The notes under the pieces are model-generated. The model was given only the letters and a program-made list of their open reading frames with translations. It had not been told where the DNA came from and made no database searches. From assembly GCA_046349955.1 (NCBI GenBank), contig JAXMBI010000030.1:17302-81301 (forward strand): a DNA stretch of 64,000 nucleotides. The letters run 5' to 3'. The translations under genes and the position numbers were made by a program. The DNA is from Pirellulales bacterium. Lineage in GTDB: Bacteria > Planctomycetota > Planctomycetia > Pirellulales > JBGAPH01. Shown piece after piece: positions 20,250 through 55,300 of this stretch; within the stretch, counting starts at the first letter, position 1; every line of letters starts with the position of its first letter.

Positions 20250-20301
20250 AGGAGGGCAGCGCGGGCAGGGGACTGGTTGGAAGCCGAGGACGTCGTTTCA
20301 G

Positions 20302-21332: not shown

Positions 21333-21515
21333 ATGTTCAACGCAATCGCGCGATTCTGGCACGATGACGAAGGCACAACCTCGGTGGAGTACGCCGTGAT
21401 GCTGGCGCTGATTCTGGTCGCCATCATCGGCGCCATTGGCAGCGTGGGGGGCCGAACCGGCGGCATGTGGGGCGGCATCAACACCGACCTCACCTCGGCC
21501 GGCTTCGGCAGCTAG
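21333..21515 (+). CDS. flp: Flp-family type IVb pilin
   Basis: 60-aa product MFNAIARFWHDDEGTTSVEYAVMLALILVAIIGAIG... carries the Flp prepilin motif (G / TTSVEY plus a hydrophobic helix). ATG 21333 is preferred over the upstream alternative start at 21294. Confidence 0.85.
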   Translation: MFNAIARFWHDDEGTTSVEYAVMLALILVAIIGAIGSVGGRTGGMWGGINTDLTSAGFGS

Positions 21516-22600
21516 TCTGCGGGGCGGCGCCCGTCCCTCAGGCCCACGAATAGCCGCCGCCATTGTGCCCAGAGTTCCGCTGGGTTAGTCAGTTCGATTA
21601 CGCGATCTCGCCCTGCGCTGGCCAACCGCCCGCGCAGGGCGTTGTTTTGCGCGAGCCGGCCGATCAGCGCCGGTACGTCGGCCGGCTCCGCGGCCAAGAG
21701 GCCGTGTTGTTCCGGAACGAGCATCTCGCGCCACCCCCAGGCATGCTGCACAACCAAGGGTGTGCCGCTGGCCAGGGCCTCGAGGCCGACGCGCGGCCAA
21801 TTCTCCTGGGCGCCGCCATTCACTTGCGCCAAGCAGTGCACTGAGCGCAAGAACTGATCGGCCGGTTCCCCTCCAGGCGGCAACGCCTCGGCCCAACTCG
21901 GGGGCGGCCCCAGCTTCTCTTGCACCTGATCGCTCCAGCCGAGCACCCGCACCTTGAACGGCCGGTAGGGGACCGCCGCGAACAACTCCCAGGTGTCTGG
22001 GTGAAACTTCGAGGGATCGGCGCGCGAGATTCGGCCGACGATGAACTCCTCGCCTGCCGCGTGGGGCAAGGGCCGGAAGGCGAAGTCGGCAAGGTCGAGC
22101 GCTCCGTGGATCAAGTGGCACTGCGCGGGCGACACTCCATAGCGCGTGAGCGTCGGGAGCAGGTTCTCCCGCTGAAATCGCGACTGAAATACATGCGCGT
22201 CGAACGGACCGTACTGTTCGTAGTGCCGCTCTTCCTCGGTGAAGATCCAGGTCATGCAGTTCGCCCAGACGAGCCGGCAACCGAGCGCGCGGAGGTCCCC
22301 GGCCCGGCGGAGAAACTCGTCGTTGCAGAACGACACGACGATCGCGTCCGCCAGACCAGGGACCGAGGCCAGCTCTGCGGGCCCCTCGATCTCGCAGGTG
22401 CGCAACCCCAACGTGTCGCACCGCCGCCGCCACTCGGGCGGGGTGCGCCACGTGGGGATGAGCGTGACCTCGAGGCCGTGGCTGCGCCACAGTTTGAGGA
22501 CGTGCCAGAGCTCGGTGTCAGCGCCGCCCAGCGCACTGGGATAGCCCACGACGAAGATCGGGGGCAGCCCCTGTTCGGCCGCGGCAAACGATGCCGACAT
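21512..22600 (-). CDS. GT-B fold glycosyltransferase (GT4-like)
   Basis: 362 aa. The C-terminal half carries the sugar-donor pocket pattern ENWPRVGLEALASGTPLVV (E-x7-E-like). The stop shares the palindrome CTAG with the flp stop. Confidence 0.75.
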   Translation of the reverse strand: MSASFAAAEQGLPPIFVVGYPSALGGADTELWHVLKLWRSHGLEVTLIPTWRTPPEWRRRCDTLGLRTCEIEGPAELASVPGLADAIVVSFCNDEFLRRAGDLRALGCRLVWANCMTWIFTEEERHYEQYGPFDAHVFQSRFQRENLLPTLTRYGVSPAQCHLIHGALDLADFAFRPLPHAAGEEFIVGRISRADPSKFHPDTWELFAAVPYRPFKVRVLGWSDQVQEKLGPPPSWAEALPPGGEPADQFLRSVHCLAQVNGGAQENWPRVGLEALASGTPLVVQHAWGWREMLVPEQHGLLAAEPADVPALIGRLAQNNALRGRLASAGRDRVIELTNPAELWAQWRRLFVGLRDGRRPAD

Positions 22601-22640
22601 GCGCTTCCTCGTCTGCTGGCCGCGAACGCCAGGCGCTCGT

Positions 22641-23027
22641 TCAGCAAGTCACGCTGGCCTGGCACTTGCCGGTGAACGTCTTGCTGGCTAAGTCGTAGAT
22701 CACCGATCCCCCGGACGACGAAGACGTGGAAACGGGATACTCGGCCCAGACACAGATCTTGTTGTCAGGATAGGGCGCGTTCGGAGAGCACTGCGCCGTG
22801 CCCACCAGACCCAGACTGTAGTCGCCGTTGGCGTCGGGCGCTACATTCGCCGAACCGGCAGGCGGGCTCGCGCTGCACGTCCCGCTCGAGGAGATGATCT
22901 TCGCATAGACCTTGGTGGCTACGGTGCCCAGCTTGATCGCGCCGCCCCCCTTGACGCATACCAAGTTGCCGTTAGCGCAGTCGCAAGGGGTCTCCGCTCC
23001 GATCGGGCTGGTGATTGAGAGCGCCAT
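22641..23027 (-). CDS. Cys-rich small hypothetical protein (128 aa)
   Basis: ATG 23027 is preceded by GAAAGGAAG, which is SD-like, with a 4-nt spacer. GC3 is high, including the 56 nt that overlap the kinase 3' end. It has 8 Cys residues and Ser/Gly-rich stretches. There is no signal peptide and no recognisable family. Confidence 0.5.
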   Translation of the reverse strand: MALSITSPIGAETPCDCANGNLVCVKGGGAIKLGTVATKVYAKIISSSGTCSASPPAGSANVAPDANGDYSLGLVGTAQCSPNAPYPDNKICVWAEYPVSTSSSSGGSVIYDLASKTFTGKCQASVTC

Positions 23028-28968: not shown

Positions 28969-29044
28969 TTGGGAGATGGGGCGGGAGCGCCCGCGCGTTA
29001 GGATGAGATGCAAAAGGAACTCGGGTCACCGAGTTGCGTGCATC

Positions 29045-29881
29045 ATGCCTGAAGCAGACCGGTCGATCACCCGCGAAGACCGCATGAGCGACTTGCGATC
29101 ATCGATCGCCGGTCTGTACGCGGTTTTCGGCGCCTATGGCTGGATCCGCGGCCGGGAGCTGCGCGCGTTGCGAAGCGCGGGTGAGGAGCCTCCGACGGCC
29201 GTGTTCGAGAAGGATCTGCGCGAGGTCAGCGCCGAGGACCTGCGCTCGCATCGCAACTGGAGCATGGGCCGGTCCGGGTTAAGCGAGTGTCTCGATAGCT
29301 TGGAGCGAACCAAGTATCTGCTGCCGCGTGTCCTCGAGCTTTTCGGGCAGACTGCAGTCGCGGAGACCGCCGAATCCATTCCGGCCTACGAGATTACTTC
29401 CAAGCTGATCGAGTACGCTTGGTGGGACTGGCCGGATGCCGAGCATGCCAGCGTGCGGCGCTGGATGGACGCCGTCTATTTGCTTCTCTTCACCAGGACG
29501 CCGGCGGAGCGGTGGGCAGGATTGCCCACCCCGGACGACTGGCTCGATAAGGTCTTGGCATGTGATCGTGACGTATCTCGCTGTCTTGAAGCTTGGTGGA
29601 GCCTAGCGTGCCCGGCCGACGTAGTCGCTGCGTCTCGAACCTTTCTCCTCGCTTGTGACAACAGCCTAATCGGCACGGGGCCATTCCCGAGGCCGCTCGC
29701 AGCGCCCCCGGATCCTGAATGGCCGGCAATAAAACAAATCGCGGCCTTCTACTGCGAGCGGCGCATGCGAGATCGCTGGGAAGCCTTGTTCTTCGCGGAG
29801 ACGATTGATCCGAAGGACCGGCAAGACCTTGCCAGGGCAGTCGACGCCTGGGATCAATGCTATGCGCGCCCTGCCGCCTGA
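29045..29881 (+). CDS. hypothetical protein (about 278 aa)
   Basis: Long ORF with coding-type GC3. ATG 29045 is preferred; the extension to 28943 runs through the upstream terminator. It is Trp/Asp-rich (WWDWPDAEH, WWSLACPAD). I recognise no family. Confidence 0.6.
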   Translation: MPEADRSITREDRMSDLRSSIAGLYAVFGAYGWIRGRELRALRSAGEEPPTAVFEKDLREVSAEDLRSHRNWSMGRSGLSECLDSLERTKYLLPRVLELFGQTAVAETAESIPAYEITSKLIEYAWWDWPDAEHASVRRWMDAVYLLLFTRTPAERWAGLPTPDDWLDKVLACDRDVSRCLEAWWSLACPADVVAASRTFLLACDNSLIGTGPFPRPLAAPPDPEWPAIKQIAAFYCERRMRDRWEALFFAETIDPKDRQDLARAVDAWDQCYARPAA

Positions 29882-29908
29882 TACGCGAAGGCGTCGGCGC
29901 GGTCGCCG

Positions 29909-32286: not shown

Positions 32287-32378
32287 GAATCTACGCCGCA
32301 TTGCGCGAGTGCCGTTGGTTTATCGCGATCGGTTCGTCGCGATTCTCGTCCCCCGGCGGCTCGCCGGGGGCTAAGGGC

Positions 32379-33242
32379 CTATCGAGGCCGCGCTACGGCC
32401 ACCAGCAGACTGCCGCGCCCAAGCCATCCGGTAAGCCGGAAGGCCAAGCGCGCAGGGGCCGACAGTTCGCGCTGCACCTGGCCGAAGATGGGATGGCAAA
32501 CGTCGTAGGCGTTGCAGATCAAGACCTCGTAGCCCGCCGATTCCAGCAGGCCGTGCAGCACCGGCCGCGTGTAGGCCAGCATGTGATAGGGCGGCTGTAA
32601 GAAACCGTAGTGGGCGCCCCAGGGGTTCAGCTTTCGCAGCGTGGGGACCAGGCCGTTGTGGTTGGGTACGTCGAGGTGCAACAACCCCCCCGGCGTCAGT
32701 GTCTCGCGGGCCTTGGCCAGGTACTCGTGCGGATTCAGGCAGTGCTCGAGCACCTGGCTCGAGAAGATCACCTCGAATTGCCGCTCGACCGGACGCTGCG
32801 TGAAATCGCCCAACTCGATGGGCAGGCCGATCTCTTTCGTGAAGGCCGTGACCTCGGGGTTGATGTCGAGTCCGGCCCAATCGACGCCGAGCTCGCGAAA
32901 GGCGACGCAGAAGGCGCCGTCGCCGCAGCCCACGTCCAGCAGCGACTCGAGTGGGCGGCCGAGCGTGCGCTCGTAAAACTCCTTGCGGGCTCGCGCCAAC
33001 GGGCGAGCGCTTTCCGCCCGGCGCTGGTGCATCGCCAGCATGTTGCGAGTGTATTCATCCCAGGTGCGAATCGACTGGCTGCCGGCAACGGTGGGGTCGT
33101 CGTCTTCGACCAAGGGCTGCACGTAGGCCAGTCCGCACTTCCCACAGGCGCCAAACGTCAGCGGTCCGCGGCGCCGGGCGGGGCGAAAATCGGGCGATGC
33201 GCAGACAGGGCAAACTTCAACCCTGCGGGCCACGGAGCTCAT
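32379..33242 (-). CDS. class I SAM-dependent methyltransferase with an N-terminal zinc ribbon
   Basis: CPVC-x17-CGKC ribbon. SAM motif I is LLDVGCGDGAF, with acidic residue GLDIN. The Methyltransf_11/23-like core reads VIFSSQVLEHC ... LTPGGLLHLDVP. Start at ATG 33242. Confidence 0.85.
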   Translation of the reverse strand: MSSVARRVEVCPVCASPDFRPARRRGPLTFGACGKCGLAYVQPLVEDDDPTVAGSQSIRTWDEYTRNMLAMHQRRAESARPLARARKEFYERTLGRPLESLLDVGCGDGAFCVAFRELGVDWAGLDINPEVTAFTKEIGLPIELGDFTQRPVERQFEVIFSSQVLEHCLNPHEYLAKARETLTPGGLLHLDVPNHNGLVPTLRKLNPWGAHYGFLQPPYHMLAYTRPVLHGLLESAGYEVLICNAYDVCHPIFGQVQRELSAPARLAFRLTGWLGRGSLLVAVARPR

Positions 33243-33347
33243 GCAATAAATCCGCTTGGGAACAAGCTGAACGACCAGCCCCAACCTCTGCTGCTTAGAT
33301 TCTAGCCTGACGAATGCCGGTCTAACCCCGGATTTTGGCTCCGACCG

Positions 33348-34439
33348 TCAGGCGATTTGCTGGTTGGCCGGACGAGGCGGACTGCCGGTAAAGTCGACCC
33401 GGCAAACCGGCCCCAGCGTGTGCTCGGGCCACACGACCAGGGCGCTGGCCCAGGAGAGCCCCACGCCAAAGGCGCTGAGCACCACCCGCATGCCGGGGCG
33501 CAAGCGGCCGGCGAGCCAGGCGTCGGTGAGGGCGACGGCGACCGTTGAGCCGCCGGAGTTGCCGACGTCGTGCAGCTTGTAGTGCAGCTTCTCGCGAGGA
33601 ATCTTCAGCTTTTTGGCCGACGATTCGATGATCATTTCGCTGGCCTGGTGGAAGATGAAGAGATCTACGTCGTCGACCGTGAGCCCGGCCTTGGTCAGCA
33701 GATTGCCCACCGCCTTGGGCACCATCTTGAGCGTGAACATGAAGATGGCGGCGCCGTCCATGTACATGTCGTCGCCGCGGCGGACGCAGCCGTTCTTGTC
33801 GGTCGTCTCCTGAGCCGATTCCGGCGTGCGCGGATGACGTAGGCCGCTGGTGGGCCAGATCAAGTGCTCGTGCCCCGAGCCATCGGTGCCGAGTTCGAAC
33901 TGCACGAAGCCCTGCCCCTGGGGCGCCCGCTCAAGCAAGGTGGCGGTGCCGGCGTCGCCGAAGAGCGGCACCACCGCCCGGTCCTGCGGATGCAAGAGCC
34001 GCGTCGGCGTTTCCCCAGTGAGCACGAGCGCCCGCTTAGCCAGGCCCGCCATGAGCATGCTATGGGCCGTGGCCAGCGAGTACACGTACTGCGAGCAGCC
34101 GAGATTAATGTCGAACGCGGCACACGAGGTCGGCAGCCCCAGCCGCTGCTGCAGGATACAGGCGGTGGTCGGCAGCAGATAGTCGGGCGTCTGCGTGGCC
34201 ATCAGCAGGAGCTCGATCGACGCGGGATCGATCGCATGCGCCGACAACAGATCCTGCGCGGCGCGAAACGCGAGGTCTGACGCACAGGTCTCCGGCCCCG
34301 CCACGCGACGTTCGAAGATGCCGGAGCTCTCGGCGACCTTCTGCATCGCCTCGGCGCCGAACCGCTCGACGAGCTGCCCATGGGTGAGCCGGTTCTCCGG
34401 CACGTAGTAGCTGGTGGCCAGGATGGCGCTGGAAGTCAT
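33348..34439 (-). CDS. 3-oxoacyl-ACP synthase III (FabH-like KAS III)
   Basis: Catalytic triad contexts are FDINLGCSQYVY (Cys), FIFHQAS (His) and VGNSGGSTV (Asn). The length of about 363 aa is typical. Start at ATG 34439. Confidence 0.9.
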   Translation of the reverse strand: MTSSAILATSYYVPENRLTHGQLVERFGAEAMQKVAESSGIFERRVAGPETCASDLAFRAAQDLLSAHAIDPASIELLLMATQTPDYLLPTTACILQQRLGLPTSCAAFDINLGCSQYVYSLATAHSMLMAGLAKRALVLTGETPTRLLHPQDRAVVPLFGDAGTATLLERAPQGQGFVQFELGTDGSGHEHLIWPTSGLRHPRTPESAQETTDKNGCVRRGDDMYMDGAAIFMFTLKMVPKAVGNLLTKAGLTVDDVDLFIFHQASEMIIESSAKKLKIPREKLHYKLHDVGNSGGSTVAVALTDAWLAGRLRPGMRVVLSAFGVGLSWASALVVWPEHTLGPVCRVDFTGSPPRPANQQIA

Positions 34440-34465
34440 GGTTGCGTCGATCGAGGAGGGATTTG

Positions 34466-34567
34466 AACCACGAAGGCACGAAGACACAAAGCAGATCATT
34501 TCTCGCCAAGGCGCTGAGATCGCAAAGTAATGAACTCGAGCTTTGCGCCCTCTGCGTCTTTGCGAGA
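34466..34567. repeat. palindromic intergenic repeat element, copy A (purine-periodic module plus 27-bp-arm hairpin)
   Basis: AACCACGAAGGCACGAAGACACAAAG at 34466-34491. An imperfect palindrome lies at 34501-34527 / 34541-34567 (22 of 27 positions pair). Both modules recur at 37145-37336. Confidence 0.65.
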
Positions 34568-34578
34568 AATCTCGATTC

Positions 34579-37125
34579 CTAAAACGGTCCGCCTAACGAG
34601 ACCCAGCGGACGAAGCGCTCCATCGGGAAGAGGCCGTCCCAGGGGCTGTCGAAAAAGGTCATGCGGCCGAGGTCGGGAAAGCGCTCGGCGCCGTTGGCAG
34701 CCGCGCGGCGCGCAAACTCCAGCCGCCGCGGGCCGTCGAGCGCCAGCCCCACGGTTTGAATCCCATGGTGGGCAAAGTCGGCCGCGGCCAATACATCGTC
34801 GATCGCGCGCACCGTGATTACCCGCGAGTAGCAGGGCTCGGCCAGGCCGCGCACGCCGAGCTCGTCGTAGAGCACGGTCCACTCGGTGCCGGACGATCGC
34901 CACACGTCGCCCGTCAGCTCGTAACGAATGCGGGCACTCTCCACCTTGGCGGCGGTGCCGGAGTCGATCGGCGCTTTGGGAATGCGGATCGCGGCCTTCG
35001 CCATTTCTTCAGCCAGGCGTTCGGCGAAGCCGCGCGGATCGCACTCAGCACCGCCCCGCTCGACGAAGATCGTGTGCGGCGAGGCGCAGGCATATTGATC
35101 GAAGACCGACGAGTCGGTCGCAGCGCCCCGCGCGGTGCGCTTCACCAGCCGCGGGGTAGCCAGCCGCTCGCGGCCGATCACCATGAACGACAGCTTGGGG
35201 CCGAAGATGATGTCTTCCGAGCCGTAACGACGCGGTAGCGCCAGCACCGATTCAATCGCCTCGCGGCCGCCCCAGGCCAGCCGCACGTCGGCCAGTTGCG
35301 AAAGCTCCGCCGCCGACTCGTAGTCATCGCGCGGGTAGTAAATCACCGCCGTAGCGGCCAGCAGATCGTCTCCGCGCAGCACGCGGCCCGAGGGCGAGGC
35401 CACCTCGAGGCCGCGGAAGGTTTCTAGCAGCGCCGGCAACACACTCGAGAACGTGCTCGCGGCCTTCAGCAGGTTCGCGTTGCGGGTGACCATCGACTGG
35501 GCGAGAGCCAGCATGCCCAACAGCGGCACATTGCCAGCCAACCAGTGGCTCACCAAACCGCGCGGCTGCGCCATCAGCAGCCGGCGGTTGCTGCCGTCTT
35601 CGGGGCGGAATCCATCGAGAAAGCCCCGCGCGCCGCGGAGCGAGCGGTCGGCCGTGTTCCGCATCGAGGGCGCCTGGCACCAACTCGAGAGGAACTGTAG
35701 CCCCTGCTGTCGTAGTGGCCCCAGCGGCGAATCGGGCGCTGCCCAGCGACGGGCCGCTGCGCCGATCAGAGCGATGATCTCGTCGGTCGTGTAATAATCG
35801 AGCCGCGCGCGGGCCGCCTTGAGGCGATCCGCCAGCGCTGGCAAGTCTTCGACCTGCGGCAATGCCTTGAGGTCGATCGGCGTAAGGAAGTTCCGCGGCG
35901 TGTAGTTGGCTTGGCCGTCGAACAGCAGCCGCACGTCGGAGGGCGGCGCATCTTCGGTCGATTGCTGCGCGGCGGCGCGAGCGGCACGCGGCCGGGCCAC
36001 CTTCTCGCTCATGATGTCGCCGCAGCCGCGCACTTCGGCCTTCTTGGCGCGGCCGAGAATGCGGAAGTGCGTGCCTTGCCAGCCGTCAGGACCCGTGCCG
36101 CGCTGCACCACAACGCCCACGTCGTCGGTCAGCACGGCGAGGCCGGGATACGAATGCGGCAGCGGCGTGAGGAACTCGAGCAGCCCTTCCTGCCCATCAG
36201 GCACAGGCTCAAACGTCGTGGGATCGCGGACCACGACTTCAGCGAACGCCGGAGCGCACTTGAGCCCGGTCGGCGAATCGGGGTAGGTGACCCCCATCTG
36301 TTCGGTGAAGCCGTAGAAGTCGACCACCGACTCGGGCGGCACGCCCAGCGCCTGGTGCATATCGGCATTGAAGCGGTCGCGGGCCACGCCTTGGTCGACC
36401 AGCTTCTTCCAGCCGCCGATGTGAATGACCTGCGAGCCAGGCGGCAGCTTGAACGACTTGCCCTGCTCCAGCAGCGGCTTCACCGCGTTGATGTAGAGCA
36501 CAAACGTGAAGCCGAACACGCAGACCGGCTCGCCAGCGGCGCTGAACTCCTCGAGCGCGGCCAGGAAAGCCGGCTCATCGAGCGTGAGCCCGCCAGCGCC
36601 CTGCTGCATGAAGTAGCGGGCTTCGCGGGCGAGGTTCAAGAATCCGCGCACCGCCGCGCCGCGGGCGCCGAGCCCCGTTGGGCCAGCCTGGCGGGGATCG
36701 ACATCCAAAACCAGAAACGGCCGCCGCCGCTGGCCGAGCACTTCGCCGATCACCGACGCGAGAGCCCTCACTTGTCGCTTCGCGGTCAGCTTGTCGACGA
36801 GCACGGTGCTAGGCACGCCGCTCGTGGCTGACGACTGCAGCCGCGTCTTGATCTCGCTCGCATCGACACTGGCCAGCAGTTCGCCGTTTTCCTTGAAGGC
36901 TTGCACCGGCAAGTAGGGGAACTCGGCGTAGTCGGCGAAGGCGTGGTCGAGCGACAGGCCGCGCCGCTCGCAGTAGCGGCGATAGGCCGGGCAATGGGCG
37001 AAGTGATGTCGGTAGGCCTCGTGCAGGGCCTCCATCAGCCGCGCGCGCTTCTGCTCCTCCGGCAACCCATAGGGCGGCAGAGAGAAGAGCTCGTCGATCA
37101 CACTCGTCTGGGCTTCAACCGACAT
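34579..37125 (-). CDS. fused acyl-protein synthetase (LuxE-like) / acyl reductase (LuxC-like), 848 aa
   Basis: The N-terminal half reads ELFSLPPYGLPEEQKRARLMEALHEAYRHHFAHCPAYRRYCERRG ... and has the adenylate-forming core of the LuxE / coenzyme F390 synthetase type. The C-terminal half is LuxC/ALDH-like (LVSHWLAGNVPLLGMLALAQS ... FDQYACASPHTIFVE). The family assignment is from sequence pattern memory, not from a search. Confidence 0.8.
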   Translation of the reverse strand: MSVEAQTSVIDELFSLPPYGLPEEQKRARLMEALHEAYRHHFAHCPAYRRYCERRGLSLDHAFADYAEFPYLPVQAFKENGELLASVDASEIKTRLQSSATSGVPSTVLVDKLTAKRQVRALASVIGEVLGQRRRPFLVLDVDPRQAGPTGLGARGAAVRGFLNLAREARYFMQQGAGGLTLDEPAFLAALEEFSAAGEPVCVFGFTFVLYINAVKPLLEQGKSFKLPPGSQVIHIGGWKKLVDQGVARDRFNADMHQALGVPPESVVDFYGFTEQMGVTYPDSPTGLKCAPAFAEVVVRDPTTFEPVPDGQEGLLEFLTPLPHSYPGLAVLTDDVGVVVQRGTGPDGWQGTHFRILGRAKKAEVRGCGDIMSEKVARPRAARAAAQQSTEDAPPSDVRLLFDGQANYTPRNFLTPIDLKALPQVEDLPALADRLKAARARLDYYTTDEIIALIGAAARRWAAPDSPLGPLRQQGLQFLSSWCQAPSMRNTADRSLRGARGFLDGFRPEDGSNRRLLMAQPRGLVSHWLAGNVPLLGMLALAQSMVTRNANLLKAASTFSSVLPALLETFRGLEVASPSGRVLRGDDLLAATAVIYYPRDDYESAAELSQLADVRLAWGGREAIESVLALPRRYGSEDIIFGPKLSFMVIGRERLATPRLVKRTARGAATDSSVFDQYACASPHTIFVERGGAECDPRGFAERLAEEMAKAAIRIPKAPIDSGTAAKVESARIRYELTGDVWRSSGTEWTVLYDELGVRGLAEPCYSRVITVRAIDDVLAAADFAHHGIQTVGLALDGPRRLEFARRAAANGAERFPDLGRMTFFDSPWDGLFPMERFVRWVSLGGPF

Positions 37126-37144
37126 CGCTGCTCACGGCTGTTCT

Positions 37145-37336
37145 AACCACGGAGACACGGAGGCACGGAGAGAATCTCTTTCAACCACGAAGACACAAAG
37201 ACACGAAGAGAATGCAGATCAACATCTTTGTTTCTCGCAAAGGCGCAGAGCCCGCAAAGGAAAGTCATTCAAAACTTTGCGAGCTCTGCGCCTTGGCGAG
37301 AACTTTCTTTCTTTGTGTCTTCGGGCCTTTGTGGTT
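37145..37336. repeat. palindromic intergenic repeat element, copy B (composite)
   Basis: Two tandem purine-periodic modules lie at 37145-37173 and 37183-37211. A hairpin with 27-bp arms lies at 37233-37259 / 37275-37301. An inverted copy of the module lies at 37307-37336. The left hairpin arm is 23/27 identical to copy A. Confidence 0.7.
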
Positions 37337-37348
37337 AAGCAATTTGGT

Positions 37349-38503
37349 TTACAAGGCTCTTTGCAGGACTTCGTCGATCAGGGCTGGGTCGACGCGGCGG
37401 GGGTTGGCGCGGCAGCAGATGTCTTCGAGCGCGCCTTCGCGGATTGCTGCCCGCTCCGGCACGACGCGGTCGAGGCCGCCTTCGATCACCGTGCGCAAGC
37501 GGTCGTCGGCGTCGAGCGTTGCCCGCAACTCATCGATGCTGGCCACCAAGGCCCGTTCATCGGCCAAGCCGATTTTCTGCGCGAGGCGACGATACCCTGC
37601 CCGCGCTTTATCTTCCATTTGATTCACTTCGATCGACGGCACGAGCAGCGCACCACACGCCAGGCCGTGCGGCACATGGAAGCGGCCAAGCTGATGGGCG
37701 ACCGCGTGGCCGATCCCAGGCACCTTTTGGTTTTGCACCCAGCCGGCCAGCAAGGCGGCCTCCATCATTTCGAGCCGCGCGTCGAGATCGTCGGGATCGC
37801 GGAACGTGCGCGGCAGCGCCGCGAGAATCATTTCCGTCGCCTTCTCGGCCAGCGCGTCGGCCAGCGGATTGGCGAAGTTCGACACGTAGCTTTCGACCGC
37901 ATGGGCCAAGGCATCGAGCCCCGCCGCGGCGATCGCCGCCGGAGGCACGCCGACCGTGAGCGTCGGGTCGAGCACCGCCACGTCAGGCAATAAGTCATGC
38001 GATACGATGGGCCGCTTCCGCCCGGTTGTGGTGTCGGTGAAAACGGCCGCCGAGCTGACCTCGGAGCCGGTGCCGGCGGTCGTTGGCACGGCGACGAAGC
38101 GGGCTTTGCCACGCAGCTTCGGCAGGGCGAACGGCCGAGCAATCCGCTCGACCTCCGCCTCGGGCTGCTCGTAGAACACCCAGGCGAGCTTGGCCGCATC
38201 GAGCACGGAGCCGCCGCCGATGGCCACGATCCAATCGGGGCGTTGCTCAGCGAGCGCGGCCGCTACCGGCTGCAATGATTCGAGACTCGGCTCGCCGCGC
38301 GGGGCCGCCACCAGCCGCATATCGACAGCGCCGATCGCCTTTTCGATACGGGCAGTTAGCTCGGCGTTGGCCAAGATCGACGGCGAGATGATCACGGTTG
38401 CCCGCGCCGCTTCGAGCGACTTGAGCGCAGCCAGGCTGCCGCGGCCGACGAAGATCTCGCCAGCGCTCACAAATCTCGGCAGAGGCAATCGCAGTCGCAG
38501 CAT
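37349..38503 (-). CDS. iron-containing (group III) alcohol dehydrogenase
   Basis: IVAIGGGSVLDAAK nucleotide-binding motif. His-rich metal site contexts are LDALAHAVESY and HAVAHQLG. 384 aa. Confidence 0.9.
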   Translation of the reverse strand: MLRLRLPLPRFVSAGEIFVGRGSLAALKSLEAARATVIISPSILANAELTARIEKAIGAVDMRLVAAPRGEPSLESLQPVAAALAEQRPDWIVAIGGGSVLDAAKLAWVFYEQPEAEVERIARPFALPKLRGKARFVAVPTTAGTGSEVSSAAVFTDTTTGRKRPIVSHDLLPDVAVLDPTLTVGVPPAAIAAAGLDALAHAVESYVSNFANPLADALAEKATEMILAALPRTFRDPDDLDARLEMMEAALLAGWVQNQKVPGIGHAVAHQLGRFHVPHGLACGALLVPSIEVNQMEDKARAGYRRLAQKIGLADERALVASIDELRATLDADDRLRTVIEGGLDRVVPERAAIREGALEDICCRANPRRVDPALIDEVLQRAL

Positions 38504-38675
38504 GATTAGTAGCCAGCACTCTCCGAGTGCTGAATGCTTGGGAAGATCGTTGGTTACTCAATCCGCGTTGTGTCTCGATCTCGCTTCCCGCGAGCGGCGG
38601 GGTTTACCCCCGCCGTCCGGAAACCGCGAAGGGCTTTCTTCGGCTCGTCATCACTCGAGCGTGATCCCGCTTCAG

Positions 38676-40250
38676 TTACGGCACACGGAGTGTGCCTACT
38701 ACTTCGGCCAACCGCTTGGCCAGCTCTTGGCGTTTGGTCTTGCCGGTATCGCTGCGGGGAACCTGCTCGATCAACGCAAAGTGCCCCGGCACCTTGAACT
38801 TCTCGAGCGACGCCAGGCAGTGTTTTTCGAGGGCCACCAGGTCGACGCTCGCGCCTGCGGCCGCCACGATGCCGGCGACGACGGTTTCGCCGGTGAAGCC
38901 GTCGAGCCCTTCGACCCCCGCCACGCCGACGCTCTCGACCCCCGGGAAGCCAGCAATGGCTTGCTCAACTTCCGTGGGATTCACCTTGTAGCCGCCGACG
39001 TTGATGAAGTCCTTGATCCGCCCCGTGATGCTCAGGTTGCCGTCTTCATCGAAGCGGCCGAGATCGCCGGTGTGCAGCCAACCGTCTTGAAACACGGCCT
39101 GCGTCGCTTCGTCGTCTTCCCAGTAACCGCTCGTGACCGTGGGGCCCGAGATCAGCACCTCGCCGCTGCCGTCGGCGATCTCGCGATCAACAGGACGCAG
39201 CTTGATCTGCACGCCGCGCATCGGGCGGCCGACCGAGCGGTATTTTGCCGGCCCCAATTGCGTAAGCGAGGCGAAGCACGAGCGGCTAGCCTCGGTGAGG
39301 CCGTAGTAAACCATGATGTCAAGGGTCGGCAGCAACTCTTGAAGCTGCACGGTGCGCTCCGGCGGCAGGGGCGCCGAGTTGATCACCGTGAATCGCAGCT
39401 TCCGACAACGCTGGGCAAGCACCGGGCCGAACTTGTCGATGAGCATGCCGAAGCCCAGCGGCGTGCCGGGGAAGCCGGTCGCGCCCCATTCGTCGATCGT
39501 CTTGAGCACGCGGCCCACGCGCGTCAGGCCGTTTTCGGTGTACACCGCGCCGCCGGAAAGCAGATTGCAGTAGACGTGCCCTAGGCCGAAGTTGTGCGAC
39601 AGCGGCAGGATCACCACCTCGCGGTCGTCGGGCGTATAGCCGACGAACTCGCAGATGTTTCGCAGGGCGGTCAGCGCGTTGCGATGCGTGAGCTTGACGC
39701 CCTTGGGCCGGCCGGTGGTGCCGGTCGTGTACATGAGGGCGGCCAAGTCGTCGGGCGAGCGGCCGACCGGCGCCGCAAGCGGTTTGGTCGCCATCAATTC
39801 TTCCGCACTGTGGACCGCCGCGCCGTCAGCAGCGCCGTCGGTAGCCTTGCCAAACAGCACCACGCGCTCAACCGTCGATCCAACGACCGCCAGCGACAGT
39901 CGCTCAAGCGAGGCCGAATCGGTCACGAGCACGCGCGGCCGGCAGCTTCCGGCAATCGCCGCGTAGCCGCTCGCGGTGATTTGCGCATCGCAGGGAACAC
40001 TGACCGCGCCCGCCGCGAGCGCTGCAAAGTGCCCCCGCAGCAGGTTCACGCTGTTGGGAAGCACGAGCGAAACGCGGTCGCCCGGCGCCACGCCGAGTTG
40101 CGTGAAACCGCGCGCGAGACGCAAGAGTTGATCGGCCAGCTCGGCGTAGTTGACCGCCTCATTCGGATCGGCCAGCGCAGGGCGATCGTTCCACCGCGCC
40201 GCGCCGGTGGTGACGATCTCGGACAGCAGCGTTACGCCGGGGAATGCCAC
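38676..40250 (-). CDS. AMP-dependent synthetase/ligase (acyl-carrier-protein or CoA ligase)
   Basis: AMP-binding motif MYTTGTTGRPKGV, core YGLTE, and TGDLGRFDEDGNLSITGRIKD. GTG 40250 is the likely start, 8 nt after the upstream ACP stop; the extension to 40409 is Arg/Gly-rich and overlaps the ACP gene. Confidence 0.9.
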   Translation of the reverse strand: MAFPGVTLLSEIVTTGAARWNDRPALADPNEAVNYAELADQLLRLARGFTQLGVAPGDRVSLVLPNSVNLLRGHFAALAAGAVSVPCDAQITASGYAAIAGSCRPRVLVTDSASLERLSLAVVGSTVERVVLFGKATDGAADGAAVHSAEELMATKPLAAPVGRSPDDLAALMYTTGTTGRPKGVKLTHRNALTALRNICEFVGYTPDDREVVILPLSHNFGLGHVYCNLLSGGAVYTENGLTRVGRVLKTIDEWGATGFPGTPLGFGMLIDKFGPVLAQRCRKLRFTVINSAPLPPERTVQLQELLPTLDIMVYYGLTEASRSCFASLTQLGPAKYRSVGRPMRGVQIKLRPVDREIADGSGEVLISGPTVTSGYWEDDEATQAVFQDGWLHTGDLGRFDEDGNLSITGRIKDFINVGGYKVNPTEVEQAIAGFPGVESVGVAGVEGLDGFTGETVVAGIVAAAGASVDLVALEKHCLASLEKFKVPGHFALIEQVPRSDTGKTKRQELAKRLAEVVGTLRVP

Positions 40251-40258
40251 GAGAGTGC

Positions 40259-40525
40259 TCAGGCCGCTCCACGCTGCGCGAGATACCGCTTGAGCAAGTC
40301 CTGCAGGTCGCCAATCGACTCCACGTCGATCGCGTCGGCCACGTCGAAGGCCACATCGAACTCCTTCTCCACGGCCATCAGCAGGTTGACGTGCCCGATC
40401 GAGTCCCACTCCGGCAGGTCGCCGGCCGCCAGGTCTTCGTCATACTGCGAGGGGTCGATCTTGAGGACGTCGAGCACCACTTGCTTCAGCTTCTCTTCCA
40501 CTTGGCCAGCCTCGTTCACTTGCAT
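40259..40525 (-). CDS. acyl carrier protein (88 aa)
   Basis: Phosphopantetheine-attachment context DLPEWDSIGHVNLLMAVEKEF. Acidic four-helix-type sequence. The start overlaps the SDR stop by 10 nt. Confidence 0.85.
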   Translation of the reverse strand: MQVNEAGQVEEKLKQVVLDVLKIDPSQYDEDLAAGDLPEWDSIGHVNLLMAVEKEFDVAFDVADAIDVESIGDLQDLLKRYLAQRGAA

Positions 40526-41262
40526 GTCAGCCCTCCATCCACGATCAATTCGGTTCCGGTGATCCAGCGGGCATCGCTCGAGGCCAGGAAGGCGATCGCC
40601 GCGGCGACGTCTTCCGGCTCGCCCAGCCCCAGCGGGTGCGCGGCCGCGATCGCCTGCGCTTGCTCAGGCGGCAACCCGCCGAGAAAGGCGTCGCTCATCG
40701 GAGTCTTCACGACGCCAGGAACTACGTTGTTCACCCGCACCTTGCGCGGCGCCAGTTCCACCGCCAAGCTGCGGCCCAGCGACAACAGCGCTCCCTTGGC
40801 CGCCGAATAGGCCGATACGGCCGAGCCGCCGCGAATGGCCGCACCCGAGGAGACCAGCACGATGCTGGCGGCTTCTTTGTCGGCCACCTTGACGAAGGCC
40901 CTTACGGCGGCGACCGCGCTGATCACGTTGGCGCGGAACATTTCTTCGTAGTTGGCCGACTGCGACACGGCGAGCGGCCGCGTTTGATGAGCGCCGGCGC
41001 ACAGCACGGCCGCGTGAAACGGGCCAAGCTCCTCGCGGAGCGGCTTGAGCGCCGCGGCGAGCGCCTTCTCATCGACCGCGTCGCAGGCGATCGTGCGGTG
41101 TCCTTCGCCGGACAGTTGGGCAACCGCGGCCGCGAGCTTGTCTTCCGAGCGGGCGACCAGCACCACGCGGGCGCCTTCGTCGGCCAGCCGCTTGGCGGCG
41201 GCCAGGCCGATGCCGGAGGAGCCGCCGGTGATCAGGGCCAGTTTGTTGGCAAAGCGCTGCAT
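40516..41262 (-). CDS. SDR-family oxidoreductase (FabG-like ketoreductase)
   Basis: TGGSSGIG cofactor motif, NVISA, and catalytic YSAAKGAL (Y-x3-K). 248 aa. Confidence 0.9.
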   Translation of the reverse strand: MQRFANKLALITGGSSGIGLAAAKRLADEGARVVLVARSEDKLAAAVAQLSGEGHRTIACDAVDEKALAAALKPLREELGPFHAAVLCAGAHQTRPLAVSQSANYEEMFRANVISAVAAVRAFVKVADKEAASIVLVSSGAAIRGGSAVSAYSAAKGALLSLGRSLAVELAPRKVRVNNVVPGVVKTPMSDAFLGGLPPEQAQAIAAAHPLGLGEPEDVAAAIAFLASSDARWITGTELIVDGGLTCK

Positions 41263-41315
41263 GCCAGAGTTCCTGGGGAGAGCGAGCAGCGACTTCTCGA
41301 GGTGGAGCGCAACCG

Positions 41316-41534
41316 CTAGGCCGCGTAGCCCAAGATGTCGCCAAAGGTGCGGAGGTCGGCGATCTTGTTGCGCGGCACCTCGACCCCCAACTCATCGAGC
41401 ACCACGATCAGGCTCAAGAGCTGTACGGAGTCGAAGTTAGGCAGATCGGCGAGGTTGGTTTGCGGCTGCAAGTCGTTCGGCGTCACTTCGAGCAGATCGG
41501 CCACCGCTTCGCGAATTTCCTGTTCCGACGGCAT
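41316..41534 (-). CDS. acyl carrier protein (72 aa)
   Basis: Attachment context LADLPNFDSVQLLSLIVVLDE. Small acidic protein. Confidence 0.8.
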   Translation of the reverse strand: MPSEQEIREAVADLLEVTPNDLQPQTNLADLPNFDSVQLLSLIVVLDELGVEVPRNKIADLRTFGDILGYAA

Positions 41535-41663
41535 CGTTCGCCCACATAGGTCCGGTAGTCAGGGGTGTCGCCACAACGGCCCGAATCGGTGCGGCGGCTG
41601 CGACCGGCGCGCAACACCACACCCTTGATTCTAGGCCAGTCCCGCCCAAGAAATCGCTTGGGC

Positions 41664-42347
41664 TTAAGCAGTCGACCCGTCGGTGGCGGGTTTGCTGATA
41701 ATCCGGGCTGGAACCCCCATCACGGTGACATGAGGCTCCACGCTGCGAATTACATAAGAGCTCGACCCTACGGTCGCGCCTTCCCCCACGCGCTTGTAGG
41801 GGTGAATAACTGCATTTGATCCTACAAAGGCCAAGCGGTCAAGGATGCAGCCGCCGTTGAGCTTAGCCCCCGGGCAAAGCTGCGCGAAATCACCCGTAAC
41901 ACTGTGATGACCGACGCCCACCTGGGTGTTGATCAGCACGTGGCGGCCGATCACGGCCTGCGGGGCGATGACGGTGAGGGCGCCCACATAGGTCCCTTCG
42001 CCAATGCTGGCGTCGGGTCCGATCACCACGCTCGAATGCACGAGGGTGGCCGGCCGCAGCCCGCGCGACTCGAGAAAGATGGCGACCTTCTGACGCTGCC
42101 GGTTGGCGCCGATGGCGCCGTGGAACCACGTGCCGGCTCCAAGATCGCGGGCGACCTCTTCGGTTGTGCCGAGGATCGGCAGGTCTTCGTAGGTTTCGCC
42201 CTTGCGGTTGGGGTTATCGTCGGCGAAGCCAAGCACGTTCCAACGGAATTCCTGGGTGCCCGTCTCGTTCATGTCGTGGGCGACCCACAGCACTTCGCTG
42301 CCAAATCCGCCGGCGCCAACGATTACCAGGTTGCGTGTTTCGGACAT
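41664..42347 (-). CDS. NeuD/PglD/VioB-family hexapeptide-repeat N-acyltransferase
   Basis: The N-terminal Rossmann-like LVIVGAGGFGSEV is followed by left-handed beta-helix hexapeptide repeats (VHSSVVIGPDASIGEGTYVGALTVIAPQAVIGRHVLINTQVGVGHHSVTGDFAQLCPGAKLNG). Confidence 0.9.
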   Translation of the reverse strand: MSETRNLVIVGAGGFGSEVLWVAHDMNETGTQEFRWNVLGFADDNPNRKGETYEDLPILGTTEEVARDLGAGTWFHGAIGANRQRQKVAIFLESRGLRPATLVHSSVVIGPDASIGEGTYVGALTVIAPQAVIGRHVLINTQVGVGHHSVTGDFAQLCPGAKLNGGCILDRLAFVGSNAVIHPYKRVGEGATVGSSSYVIRSVEPHVTVMGVPARIISKPATDGSTA

Positions 42348-42916
42348 GGTCGGGTTGGGGCTCGAGCGAGGTGGGTTGGGAATGCGCGTGGCGTGGCGGC
42401 TCCTTCATGTTTAGCACATTTGCCGGCTCGAGAAACCGCTGGTCCGGCGGTGGTAAGGATCGTAGCGAGCCTGCCCAATGCGCTGGCAGCGCTTGCCATG
42501 CGGCTATGCAAGAACTGGGGGGCTGGTGGGTTGGGTGACACGCCGCTGCGGAAGTCTTGTTCTACGCAACCAGTTGCATGAATTGCAGTTGTGCTGCGAT
42601 TGCTCTCGCTGGCCCAGTGGGCAGTCGCGCTCATGGCACTTTGGTTGCTTTGCGGTGCGGGCGGCGATGGGTCTTGCGCTGGCAAGACTTGGCGGATTCT
42701 CGAACCCTCAGGCCGGGCCTCTTCACCGTGCGGGGGCAAAGGGGCCGGCGATTCTTCGCGACCGACGATCGGAACAGACACGAGTGCGCGGCGGCCGGCG
42801 GGTGTGTGGCTCGCCGCCGGCCTCAACGGTTGGGACCCTCTGCCGACTGCCATGGAGGGGACACGGCAGTGGCGATAATTCTGGCTCCGCCTGGCCAGAA
42901 GGAAGCCCCACGGCTT

Positions 42917-52352: not shown

Positions 52353-55300
52353 TTAGCGGCCGCCAAATCCCCCGCCGCCAAATCCCCCGCCGCCAAAGCC
52401 GCCACGTTGGCCGCCGAAACCGCCGCCCTGCTGGCCGAATCGCTGTTGGCCGCCGCCGTTCCGCGTGCCGCCCCCGCCTTGGCCCCGCGCGTTGGCGGCC
52501 GTGGGAGTGGCGCCGGCTTGTTGACCGAGGACGCGAGCGAGCACCTCACGCATGCTCGCGCCGTCGACGCTCCGTCCCAGCGGCACCACGGCGACGTTCC
52601 GCTCCGACGCGGCGCGGTCCACCTGCTTCACGAGCGCCAGGACTTCGCGAATCACGAACTCAGGCGCCGAGATGATGAGCTGGTTCGAGACTTCATCGAT
52701 CCCCAGCGAAAGCTGGCCTTTGTATTGCGGCCTCTTGGTGCTGGTCAGCTCGCCGCCGAGATAGACCACGCGGCGCTGTTCGCCCCCGCGGCCGCCCCCC
52801 TGCTGTTGGCCCTGCGCGAGGGCCTTGTCGTTCTCGCTCAGTAGGTCGCGGAAGACCTCTTTCACCACCTCGGCCACTTGCGTGGCCTTGGAGTGCTGGA
52901 TCTGCACCAGCTCGGTGCGGCGGGCTGACTGCGAGTCTTCAGGCTCGGGTTGATCGTAGAATTCGATCAGCTCCTCGATCGTGCGCAACTGCTCCGGTGA
53001 GGCGTGCTGCACGAGGATCGTGTTCGAGTCGAGGTCGGAAATGAGCTTGAGGGGCAGTCGGCGCGAGAGCCGCTGTTGCGGCGTCGCGCTCGTTCCCAGC
53101 GGGCGGCCGAAGCCCCGTTCCCCTTGCCGCTCGCCAAACCCGCCGCCGGTGAAGCCACCACTGTTGCCGCCACGCTGACCGGCAAAGCCGCGATTCGCCG
53201 CGCTCGCGGCGGCCGCGCTCGCCGGCGTCACGCCGAACACCTCTTCCAAGTTCATCCGCACCGTCGGCGCCCAGGCATGGCGCAGGCGAAAGAGGCGGAA
53301 GTCCTGCTCCGGTGGCGACAGCTCTTGCAGCAGCCGCTCCACGCGGTCGAGCGCCTCGGGATCAGGCGAGGTGACGATCACCTGGCCAGCGGGGCCTTCG
53401 GTGACGCGGACCGGCGAGCCGGCTTGGGTCGCCGCTTGCGCCGGCTCGTCAGCTTCGTCCGCTCCCTGGGCGTCGCTCGCAGCGGCCGGTGCATCCGATG
53501 GCTTTGCCACGGCATCGGCCGCCTTTTCCGCCTCAGCGGCCGGGGAGACGGGATTCATCGCCAGTAGGACCGGCGTTTGGGGGCGGGTCAGATCGGCCGA
53601 ACGGCGCCGTACGTCGTCCGGCGCCTCGGCAGCCGGCTCGGGCTTGTCGGCGGCGGGGGCGGTTTCGGTTCGCTGGCTGCCCATGCGGAGCGGCACTTCT
53701 TTGAGCGGCGGGCTCGCGCGCTGGCTGCGGCGCTCCCCTTCGGCCCCCTTGCGTTTGGCCTCGCGCGGTACGACCTCGAGCTTGTTGTCTCCCACGGTCG
53801 GCCAGAGCCGTTCGAGCTGGCGCAGCAACTCGTCGGTGTCGCCCGGCGTGCGAATGACGCGGACGTTGGAGTCGGTCGCGGGGCCGGTGCGGGCATCGAG
53901 CTTGGCCAGCAGCGTCTTTACTTCGTTCAGCTCGGCCTCGGTGGCCCACAGCAAGAGTTGGTTGCGCTCCACGTCGGCCTCGACGCGGAACTGGTCCTGC
54001 GGCGGTTGCCGCTCTTCGCCGCGGCGGCGCCAGTTGCGGCTCTCAGCAGCCTCGGCCGGCGCCGGGGCGCCGAGCATGTACTCGACGGTGCCGGCCACTT
54101 CGACGACGTCGAGATTCGCCAGCGGAATCACCTCGAAGCGTCGTCCCGCGGCGTCAAGCTGCGAGATGATGGCGCCAATCAGCATTTGATCGGTCGGGGC
54201 GGCGTAGGCGATCAGCGCGCCGTTGTTGTTGTCGGCCTCGAGTCGCGTGCCGGCGTCGAGGTCGCCACTGGTGCGCAGGTTGGTGAGAAGATCGACCACG
54301 CGCTCCGGATCGAGCCCGGGAAGCCGATACACGCGCATCCGCGTGGCGGCCTGCAAAGGCGAACGGGCGTTCTGCGGCGGCGCATCGAGCGCCTCGAGCG
54401 CCTGACGAATGAGCGCCATCTTGTCCGGCGGAGCATTCACCAGGATGCTGTTCTCTTGCTCATTGACCGCCATATACACTTCCGGCTGCTGCCGGTTCAT
54501 GCCCGGAGCGTCTTTGCCGAGCTGTTTGACCATCTCGGCCTTCATCCGCGTTTCTTCCATCGCCATCCGCATCTGCCCGAACGAGTTCGGATCGCGTGGC
54601 TTCTCCATACCGAGAAGCGCGCGGAGTTTGTCGCTGGCGTCGACGGCGCGGGCATGGCGGAGCTTGAATTCCTCGACCAACCGCTCCTGAGCGACCCCCG
54701 ATTGCTCGCGCTCGAGCAAGGCCTTGAGTTCGCGCAGGTTCACGACGGCGTCAACGGCTTCGAGCCGATTGGTGGCCTTCATCGGCGCGAGTTTGCCGAA
54801 TGGGCTGAGCAGGGGCTTGAGTTCCTGAGCGGCCGACTCGGCGACCAGCCACTCGAGCTTGAACGTGGTCCGCACGAACTCGTGGGCGTCGCGCTTGGCC
54901 AGTTGCTCGGGCTCGACATACGGAACCAAGCTCGCGTTGAGCTTGTCGAGTTTGACGACCGAGAGCACTTCGCCCCGTTTGAGCATAGTGAAGCCGCGGG
55001 CAAGCAGGTGCATGTTGATCAGGTCACGGGCTTCGTCGAGCGTATAGTCGCGCTGAGTTTCGAGGTTCAGGAAGTCGCCCGGCACCTCTTGCCAGTCAAG
55101 GCTCATGCCCGAGATTTCGGCTAACCAATCGAGAATCGAAGGCCACGACTCACCGCGGAAATTGAAGCGAATGCGGCCGTTTTCGCCGGGGGCGACTTCG
55201 AGCCGAGGGCCCGTGGGAGGACCGACCTGGTCGCGCGTCACCACCGGCGGACCCGGCGGCGTTGCGGGCTTCGCCTCTTCTTTCTTGACCTCTTCGGGTG

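Follow-up and report, generated by a model that had tools for sequence, protein, structure and literature searches.

The analysed window is a stretch of 64,000 nucleotides from contig JAXMBI010000030.1 of a Pirellulales bacterium (assembly GCA_046349955.1), and reading of its open reading frames (ORFs) revealed a string of nine co-oriented genes on the minus strand at positions 32379–42347. The products of these genes are a NeuD-like N-acyltransferase, two acyl carrier proteins (ACP1 and ACP2), a short-chain dehydrogenase/reductase (SDR), an AMP-forming ligase, an iron-containing alcohol dehydrogenase (Fe-ADH), a fusion of LuxE and LuxC domains, a 3-oxoacyl-ACP synthase III (KAS III) and a methyltransferase dependent on S-adenosylmethionine (SAM) (Table 1). 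The original prediction, made from the sequence alone, described this cassette as a carrier-protein-dependent acyl-tailoring cluster of ten genes; nine were found, and its own list also names nine. All of its family assignments were confirmed by searches with Pfam and NCBIfam profiles, including the placement of the product of 34579–37125 in the LuxE and LuxC families and of the product of 41664–42347 in the NeuD/PglD family.

In transcription order, the genes are separated by 129, 53, -10, 8, 172, 223, 139, and 102 bp. The short gaps or overlaps that had been described are thus real for some spacings (-10 and 8 bp) and not for others (172 and 223 bp), and strong hairpin repeats lie inside two of the gaps. 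The starts of the ligase (GTG at 40250), KAS III (34439), and methyltransferase (33242) genes were refined by agreement with the gene calls of a sister strain. The G+C content of the cluster, 0.657 versus 0.655 for the window, does not mark it as foreign.

Table 1. Features of the cassette in transcription order, with the two hairpins last (window coordinates; profile matches with E values)
Feature	Position	Strand	Evidence and remarks
NeuD/PglD/VioB-family N-acyltransferase, 227 aa	41664..42347	-	TIGR03570, PglD_N and Hexapep; first in cassette
ACP1, 72 aa, FDS motif	41316..41534	-	PP-binding 5.7e-9; carrier of the accessory module
SDR, FabG-like ketoreductase, 248 aa	40516..41262	-	adh_short_C2 4.7e-54, KR 9.6e-18
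ACP2, 88 aa, WDS motif	40259..40525	-	PP-binding 2.1e-6; carrier of the core module; 10-bp overlap with the SDR gene
AMP-forming ligase, 524 aa	38676..40250	-	AMP-binding 5e-73 and C-terminal domain; GTG start 8 bp past ACP2
Iron-containing alcohol dehydrogenase, 384 aa	37349..38503	-	Fe-ADH 4e-37, ADH_Fe_C 2.5e-34
LuxE::LuxC fusion (acyl-protein synthetase and acyl-thioester reductase), 848 aa	34579..37125	-	LuxE 1.8e-96 (residues 8-376), LuxC 8.1e-82 (residues 446-841)
KAS III, FabH-like condensing enzyme, 363 aa	33348..34439	-	Pfam 1.3e-27 and 3.5e-20; NF006829
Zinc-ribbon class I SAM methyltransferase, 287 aa	32379..33242	-	Methyltransf_23 4e-20; strain-variable add-on
Palindromic REP-like hairpin in the Fe-ADH/LuxE::LuxC gap	37231..37303	.	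Inverted 20-mers
Weaker second hairpin copy in the LuxE::LuxC/KAS III gap	34499..34569	.	Same 20-mer; z = -1.9

The transferase scored 186.6 bits with the sugar N-acyltransferase family TIGR03570, above the curated cutoff of 160.8, and matched PglD_N (9.7e-12) and Hexapep (3e-14). Its closest relative of solved structure was VioB (7txp, 9e-29), followed by WeeI, PglB-ATD, PerB, and PglD. In the alignment with PerB, the histidine of the motif GVGHHS falls on a position occupied by His in the wild type (4ea7) and by Asn in the mutant (4eaa). With this score, the PglD_N domain, the left-handed beta-helix and the aligned catalytic His, the protein belongs to the N-acyltransferase family acting on nucleoside diphosphate (NDP)-4-amino sugars.

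For the ligase, the best relatives of solved structure were oxalate-CoA ligase 5ie0 (6e-60) and 6qjz, and malonyl-CoA synthetase 4fuq (1e-49). It also matched the "exosortase A-associated acyl-CoA ligase" model below threshold (261 bits versus a cutoff of 592). The nearest solved relatives of the Fe-ADH were the alcohol dehydrogenase domains of AdhE, lactaldehyde reductase, and 1,3-propanediol dehydrogenase, all acting on short-chain substrates. The LuxE::LuxC protein aligned to the LuxE and LuxC chains of 7xc6 and keeps both the RGC motif, which we take to contain the acylation cysteine of LuxE, and the ACxS motif, presumably with the catalytic cysteine of LuxC. Its scores with the NCBIfam lux equivalogs were far under the cutoffs (106 versus 550 bits for LuxE, 85 versus 750 bits for LuxC), and neither LuxD nor luciferase families were found among the window ORFs scanned, a set that excluded the smaller ORFs. 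Judged by sequence, the likeness to the LuxC/LuxE reductase of bioluminescence is limited to the Pfam domain families. The exact LuxE::LuxC sequence of the window had no database record. Its family, with fused and stand-alone forms, comprised 381 clusters at 50% identity with E <= 1e-30. Searches of plasmids with tblastn gave only partial matches to the LuxE domain, at 27%–37% identity.

The SDR matched FabG models with 141–156 bits, under their cutoffs, and its translation contains the motifs TGGSSGIG and YSAAK. KAS III scored 265.5 bits with NF006829 (cutoff 249); its best solved relative was 3gwa (1e-75), and the contexts of the catalytic Cys (NLGCS), His (FHQAS), and Asn (VGNSG) align. In the translation of the methyltransferase gene, an N-terminal four-cysteine ribbon of the form CxxC...CxxC was read.

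Thirteen loci outside the Pirellulales lineage (designated by L numbers) were examined. Among the matches listed, the closest homologues of LuxE::LuxC had 59%–69% identity, and the labelled ones were nearly all from Verrucomicrobiota, the others being one metagenome-assembled genome (MAG) of Pseudomonadota and one Rhizorhapis isolate. In 12 of the 13 loci, the cassette stands among polysaccharide genes, in most cases with Bac_transf, DegT, and PglF-like Polysacc_synt_2 genes, and many of the 12 also have GT1/GT4, Wzy_C, or EpsI genes. The relatives are thus tied to amino-sugar and polysaccharide genes, as had been predicted, and not to wax-ester, fatty-alcohol, or lipid A loci.

Five of these loci, of the Verrucomicrobiota type (L002, L008, L009, L014, and L018), carry the same eight genes, NeuD through KAS III, in the same order and tightly packed, with protein identities of 52%–73%. 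Their neighbours are genes for GT1/GT4, an Asn synthase-like protein, EpsI, DegT, a PglC-like Bac_transf protein, a PglF/CapD-like Polysacc_synt_2 protein, and Wzy_C. Compared with these tightly packed loci with glycan neighbours, the window has longer gaps, an added methyltransferase gene, and housekeeping flanks. The same gene content is rearranged in L013, also among glycan genes, with KAS III and SDR on the opposite strand by another hexapeptide transferase. A shorter version, consisting of NeuD, ACP, ligase, Fe-ADH, and LuxE::LuxC only, adjoins glycan genes in L004 and L010 (Cerasicoccus frondis), and L003 resembles these two but has pseudogene fragments of KAS III in addition. In L011 (Myxococcota), the set from ACP to LuxE::LuxC lies beside glycan genes, and a NeuD-like gene was not detected at this locus. 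More distant versions with adjoining sugar genes were found in L005, from a gammaproteobacterium in which LuxE and LuxC are encoded separately, and in L012 (Magnetococcales). Only in L015, the Pseudomonadota MAG, does the core cassette stand among housekeeping genes. The NeuD-like gene heads the string in the window and likewise in the 10 examined cassettes outside Vibrio cholerae that have such a gene. Since the gene order is kept across several phyla, the arrangement is far beyond chance.

The genes for ACP1, SDR, and KAS III occur jointly. All three are missing from the core-only loci L004, L010, L011, and L015, and in L003 ACP1 and SDR are gone and KAS III is present only as pseudogene fragments. 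These remains, three short pieces at 12668–13174 of L003, are consistent with joint decay of the three genes. The lone ACP of the core-only cassettes resembles ACP2 (56%–64% identity), not ACP1. The joint presence or absence of the three genes therefore divides the cassette into a five-gene core, a three-gene accessory module, and an optional methyltransferase. KAS III, SDR, and the second ACP, left as unexplained extras in the original prediction, turned out to be a separable module with a content matching the acp/vioR/vioS set of the Pseudomonas syringae viosamine island, which has been validated genetically (PMC3927599).

Several smaller features of the related loci were recorded. An EpsI gene lies directly past the cassette in five of the six Verrucomicrobiota-type loci (L002, L004, L008, L009, and L010) and one gene further in L014. 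A Glyoxalase_4 gene, VOC/methylmalonyl-CoA-epimerase-like, was found directly upstream of the cassette in L010 (6035–6469), L011 (6397–6816), and L015 (3746–4207), which belong to three phyla, and in none of the eight-gene cassettes; in L010 and L015 it stands right before the NeuD-like gene. Its presence may mean that the substrate of the core-only version is a 2-substituted acyl thioester, which would have to be epimerised. At L015, the cassette (3746–14749) is surrounded by genes for Lon, HU, SpoU, rpsB, and tsf, with a divergent KAS III-like gene about 1.6 kb away and psd and a CDP-alcohol phosphatidyltransferase gene about 3 kb away. Three NeuD-like copies lie beside the eight-gene cassette of L014 (2762–4093 and 5306–5938); two of them are fused in an 810-aa ORF, and the third was called as a 97-aa fragment and may be frameshifted.

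Two known systems resemble the modules. In V. cholerae O1, genes VC0248–VC0252 form a putative module for 3-deoxy-L-glycero-tetronate; the block is assigned to tetronate synthesis by homology only, and its proposed role there, to N-acylate a 4-amino-4,6-dideoxyhexose, by homology and mutant phenotype (PMC3441752). VC0249 is RfbL/WbeL, a protein of 471 aa needed for the O1 antigen, VC0250 (1125 nt) encodes an iron alcohol dehydrogenase, and VC0252 an acetyltransferase (PMC3441752, PMC9915646, PMC9201469). Common to the window and V. cholerae O1 are the ligase, Fe-ADH, a fused acyl-protein synthetase/acyl-CoA reductase of about 825–848 aa, and an acetyltransferase-type transferase, and the order ligase > Fe-ADH > LuxE::LuxC is that of VC0249 > VC0250 > VC0251. 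Of the collinearity with rfbK-L-M-N that had been proposed, the L-M-N part therefore stands, matching VC0249–VC0251, but RfbK as an ACP could not be confirmed. In the window, Pfam and NCBIfam searches found all five types, that is, ACP, AMP-ligase, Fe-ADH, fused LuxE::LuxC, and hexapeptide acyltransferase. The window has the transferase gene as the first of the cassette, whereas in V. cholerae it follows the reductase (VC0252 after VC0251). The window also differs by the extra ACP, KAS III, ketoreductase, and optional methyltransferase, and by the absence of adjacent genes for perosamine or other sugars. The likeness described here is one of families, annotations, and gene order. No Vibrio was present among the 120 homologues listed, and no Vibrio name among the ten fused representatives of the 50% clusters. 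The product of the window cassette is probably not tetronate itself.

The counterpart of the accessory module is the viosamine island of P. syringae pv. tabaci, which makes N-(3-hydroxybutanoyl)-2-O-methyl-viosamine, has vioR and vioM mutants that were verified by mass spectrometry, and consists of vioA, the methyltransferase gene vioM, vioT, the KAS III gene vioS, the transferase gene vioB, the reductase gene vioR, and acp (PMC3927599). With this island and its homologous part in P. aeruginosa PAK, the window shares a NeuD/VioB-type transferase, KAS III, 3-oxoacyl-ACP reductase, a small ACP, and a methyltransferase. The features of a viosamine-type 3-hydroxyacyl module were thus found, namely a KAS III with Cys, His, and Asn, a FabG-like ketoreductase, a dedicated ACP, and a NeuD/VioB-family transferase. 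In contrast to the island, the window lacks the vioA aminotransferase, the vioT glycosyltransferase, and nearby flagellar genes and adds the ligase, Fe-ADH, LuxE::LuxC, and a second ACP. The methyltransferase is not a constant part here, being missing in a further Pirellulales strain (L016) and in the Verrucomicrobiota cassettes, and VioM of P. syringae methylates the sugar, not the acyl group.

Modules of ACP, 3-oxoacyl-ACP reductase (FabG), AMP-dependent synthetase, LuxE, and LuxC are also widespread in the flagellin glycosylation islands of Aeromonas group II and Enterobacteriaceae, where they are biochemically uncharacterised (PMC7874193, PMC4875605). In these islands, LuxE and LuxC are separate, as in L005, no Fe-ADH or KAS III is reported, and the linkage is to pseudaminic acid and flagellin, whereas in the window LuxE and LuxC are fused and the flanks (rplM/rpsI, DprA, DnaE, and other housekeeping genes) are not flagellin or pseudaminic-acid genes. 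The cluster thus joins two modules that were already familiar from O-antigen and flagellin-glycan loci, and many Verrucomicrobiota have this combination too. In the literature on planctomycete N-acyl amino sugars, nothing mentioning Planctomycetes was found, and no report was found of in vitro reconstitution of the ACP/ligase/Fe-ADH/LuxE::LuxC route, that of V. cholerae O1 included.

Within the Pirellulales, the window had about 91%–97% nucleotide identity over aligned blocks to a contig of a Pirellulales-labelled MAG (L001/L006), and the third strain of the lineage, L016, was reached through the NeuD protein. The three strains share one chromosomal site, with the cassette between the membrane-protein gene and rpsI, but its ends differ. 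L016 has the eight genes only. The tail methyltransferase gene of the window lies in a stretch of about 980 bp missing from L016 (19166–19205 of L016 versus 32374–33355 of the window). L006 has the tail methyltransferase and, in addition, a second Methyltransf_23 paralogue and a 511-aa protein at the head and an insertion sequence (IS)-like insert at the tail (2196–4685 and 14876–16648, corresponding to 42306–42835 and 32375–32388 of the window); these three additions are found neither in the window nor in L016. The 511-aa protein, encoded upstream of NeuD, consists of MBL-fold, SCP2 (Rv3818-like), and Rieske domains. A 590-aa "gene" after the L006 methyltransferase was considered as a pathway member and rejected, its translation being of low complexity with a weak DDE_Tnp_1_4 match; it is probably an IS remnant. 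The eight-gene block is constant among the strains, while the two cassette ends vary in the manner of a hotspot. The methyltransferase had been suggested as a possible pathway step; since it varies among strains, and is missing from L016 and from the five Verrucomicrobiota-type loci with the same eight genes, it is not an obligatory one.

Comparison of the window with L006 gave dN/dS values of 0.00–0.24 for the nine genes (NeuD 0.24, ligase 0.12, LuxE::LuxC 0.036, and the rest <=0.06), with 0.03–0.06 for the flanking housekeeping genes rpsI, rplM, and DprA. The low values in all nine genes indicate that the cassette is maintained by purifying selection. NeuD and the ligase change several times faster than the rest of the cassette; acceptor and acid specificity are expected to depend on these two enzymes. 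Identities to the Verrucomicrobiota homologues were 66%–69% for LuxE::LuxC and 71%–73% for KAS III, and in the databases searched just one lineage of Pirellulales carries the cassette. These identities, the single lineage, and the fixed site with variable ends and an IS-like element suggest that the eight-gene block was probably acquired horizontally without its sugar neighbours.

Taken together, the cassette probably makes a hydroxyacyl-ACP donor and N-acylates an amino sugar of a cell-surface glycan. The core module would start from a small polar acid, most likely a C3–C4 dicarboxylic or hydroxy-dicarboxylic acid, of which one carboxylate would be activated by the LuxE domain, reduced to the aldehyde by the LuxC domain, and further to the primary alcohol by the Fe-ADH, and the ligase would put the other carboxylate onto ACP2. 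This logic would be the same as that proposed for tetronate in V. cholerae O1. In the accessory module, KAS III could add a C2 unit from malonyl-ACP1, and the 3-keto group could be reduced by the SDR. In the version that we prefer, KAS III would extend the primer bound to ACP2, yielding a 3,omega-dihydroxyacyl-ACP1; that both modules build one acyl group in this way, on a single chain, is a tentative proposal. The NeuD/VioB-type enzyme would then transfer the acyl group to the 4-amine of an NDP-4-amino-4,6-dideoxyhexose, the genes for whose synthesis would lie elsewhere in the genome, and the methyltransferase may act on a hydroxyl of the sugar or of the acyl group, as an optional modification that differs among strains. 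The acceptor, regarded as unknown in the original prediction, is narrowed to such a sugar by the gene contexts in the relatives; by analogy with their PglF/DegT/PglC genes, it may be a PglF/PglE-type, UDP-4-amino-4,6-dideoxy-N-acetylhexosamine-like sugar.

Several observations weigh against this reconstruction. Either module can do without the other, as the core does in V. cholerae and Cerasicoccus and the vio module in P. syringae, so that cooperation between them is not required. The V. cholerae pathway itself has homology and mutant phenotypes behind it and no enzymology (PMC3441752). The substrate hints from the ligase and Fe-ADH come from modest similarity, and non-ribosomal adenylation domains score almost equal to the dicarboxylate ligases for the window ligase. 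The window contains no gene for an aminotransferase, dehydratase, glycosyltransferase, or PglC-like protein of such a locus, so that the amino sugar is a presumed acceptor in this organism. Finally, L014, with three NeuD-like copies next to its eight-gene cassette, fits several separate acyl transfers better than one.

The last point also agrees with the main alternative, itself rather unlikely, in which two donors are made in parallel: 3-hydroxybutanoyl-ACP1, formed from acetyl-CoA and malonyl-ACP by KAS III and the SDR in the manner of the P. syringae viosamine island, and an independent omega-hydroxyacyl-ACP2, formed by the ligase, LuxE::LuxC, and Fe-ADH in the manner proposed for tetronate. 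The two acyl groups would be transferred to different amines, to different sugars, or to each other by a NeuD of relaxed specificity or by another transferase with its gene elsewhere. The separate existence of the core (L004, L010, L011, and L015) and of the vio module (PMC3927599), as well as the KAS III and SDR genes of L013 on the opposite strand by another hexapeptide transferase, are in line with this, but there is a single NeuD in the window, L002, L008, L009, and L018, and the modules are interleaved in one gene string and inherited as an eight-gene block across phyla. Moreover, in the 22-kb locus examined for L008 and in that for L009, a single DegT aminotransferase was called and a single NeuD is present, which implies one free amine and favours one acyl product. 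It is improbable that the acceptor is not a sugar, and that the product of the cassette is a fatty alcohol or aldehyde, or an N-acylated lipid head group, polyamine, or amino acid. LuxC and LuxE are classically components of a fatty-acid reductase, the orphan cassette of L015 lies about 3 kb from phospholipid genes (psd and the CDP-alcohol phosphatidyltransferase gene), and sugar genes are missing from the window; against this, the transferase scores above the cutoff of TIGR03570, a sugar-specific family, has kept the PglD_N domain for binding of nucleotide sugars, and is nearest to VioB, PerB, and PglD, glycan genes surround the cassette in 12 of the 13 loci from other lineages, the lux equivalog scores are far under cutoff, and short polar substrates are used by the enzymes related to the ligase and Fe-ADH. 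Since the genes of a pathway are known to be scattered in planctomycete genomes, the lack of linkage to sugar genes is weak evidence.

A quite unlikely and more speculative variant supposes that the cassette was uncoupled from glycan loci in this Pirellulales lineage and, independently, in the Pseudomonadota MAG of L015. The cassette would then place dihydroxyacyl or methoxyacyl groups onto an acceptor not yet known to carry them, such as a polyamine, the head group of an aminolipid, or an amino sugar of the planctomycete envelope, and its two ACPs would serve a miniature type II synthase, in which KAS III and the ketoreductase extend an omega-hydroxy primer derived from a dicarboxylate. Least credible, and highly improbable, is a decaying remnant of horizontal acquisition with no acceptor in the host. 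The apparent horizontal transfer, with the closest labelled relatives listed outside Pirellulales being nearly all Verrucomicrobiota, the strain-variable ends of the site, and the IS-like insert in L006 would suit it, but all nine ORFs are full length, the dN/dS values, obtained over about 8%–9% nucleotide divergence, are similar to those of rpsI, rplM, and DprA, and the same eight-gene block occupies the same site in three strains.

Unusual N-acyl groups on amino sugars, including tetronate, 3-hydroxybutanoyl, and others, shape the antigenicity of O-antigens and flagellins and recognition by phages. For enzymologists, the five-gene core and the three-gene extension provide a compact modular definition, and cultured carriers of the core cassette exist among Cerasicoccus species. 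The cassette is of value mainly as a compact target, with which an acyl-tailoring pathway of this class could be reconstituted biochemically for the first time. For Planctomycetota, it would represent a horizontally acquired surface-glycan decoration with methylation genes differing by strain, rather than a new kind of system.

The cassette is flanked on one side by rplM, rpsI, and DprA and on the other by a divergent gene for a 673-aa membrane protein with about 10–11 predicted helices, followed by DnaE and a DUF2817 protein. The membrane protein had no family match, and its earlier label of a transporter could not be verified. Eight glycan-locus proteins of a relative (DegT aminotransferase, PglF-like dehydratase, PglC-like transferase, EpsI, Wzy_C, GT1, GT4, and Asn synthase-like) were used as tblastn queries against the 64-kb window and gave no match. 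The absence of neighbouring sugar genes that had been noted is thus correct for the window, where genes related to sugars are limited to a weak GT1-like one (21512–22648) and one for a CpsB/CapC-like PHP phosphatase (20089–21087; 3e-37), about 10 kb away and separated from the cassette by a Ser/Thr kinase gene and others.

The hairpins of the cassette are copies of a palindromic element of about 70 nt with arms like TTTCTCGCAAAGGCGCAGAG; both copies are intergenic, and the 20-mer of the palindrome has four matches in the window versus 0.01 expected. For the copy at 37231–37303, which lacks a U-tract, the folding energy is -53 kcal/mol (z = -7.9); the copy at 34499–34569 is kept at the same position in L001, L006, and L007. 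The hairpins could be repetitive extragenic palindromic (REP)- or miniature inverted-repeat transposable element (MITE)-like elements or sites of mRNA processing or stability. An Rfam match of the first copy to mir-2072 (42 bits versus a gathering score of 100) was rejected as a chance match on a hairpin, and the Rfam scan of the cluster gave nothing else. A scan for promoters and terminators found 0 promoters and 8 terminator-like sites versus 8.7 expected.

Elsewhere in the window, a segment of about 930 bp (28979–29907) with a 312-aa ORF of no family match lies between the CARDB-domain gene and DprA and is missing in L006. The gene for a PEP-CTERM protein stands at 55826–56557, about 13 kb from the cassette, and two very large proteins of the secretin family, of 1446 and 1095 aa, are encoded at 1068–5408 and 52353–55640, respectively.

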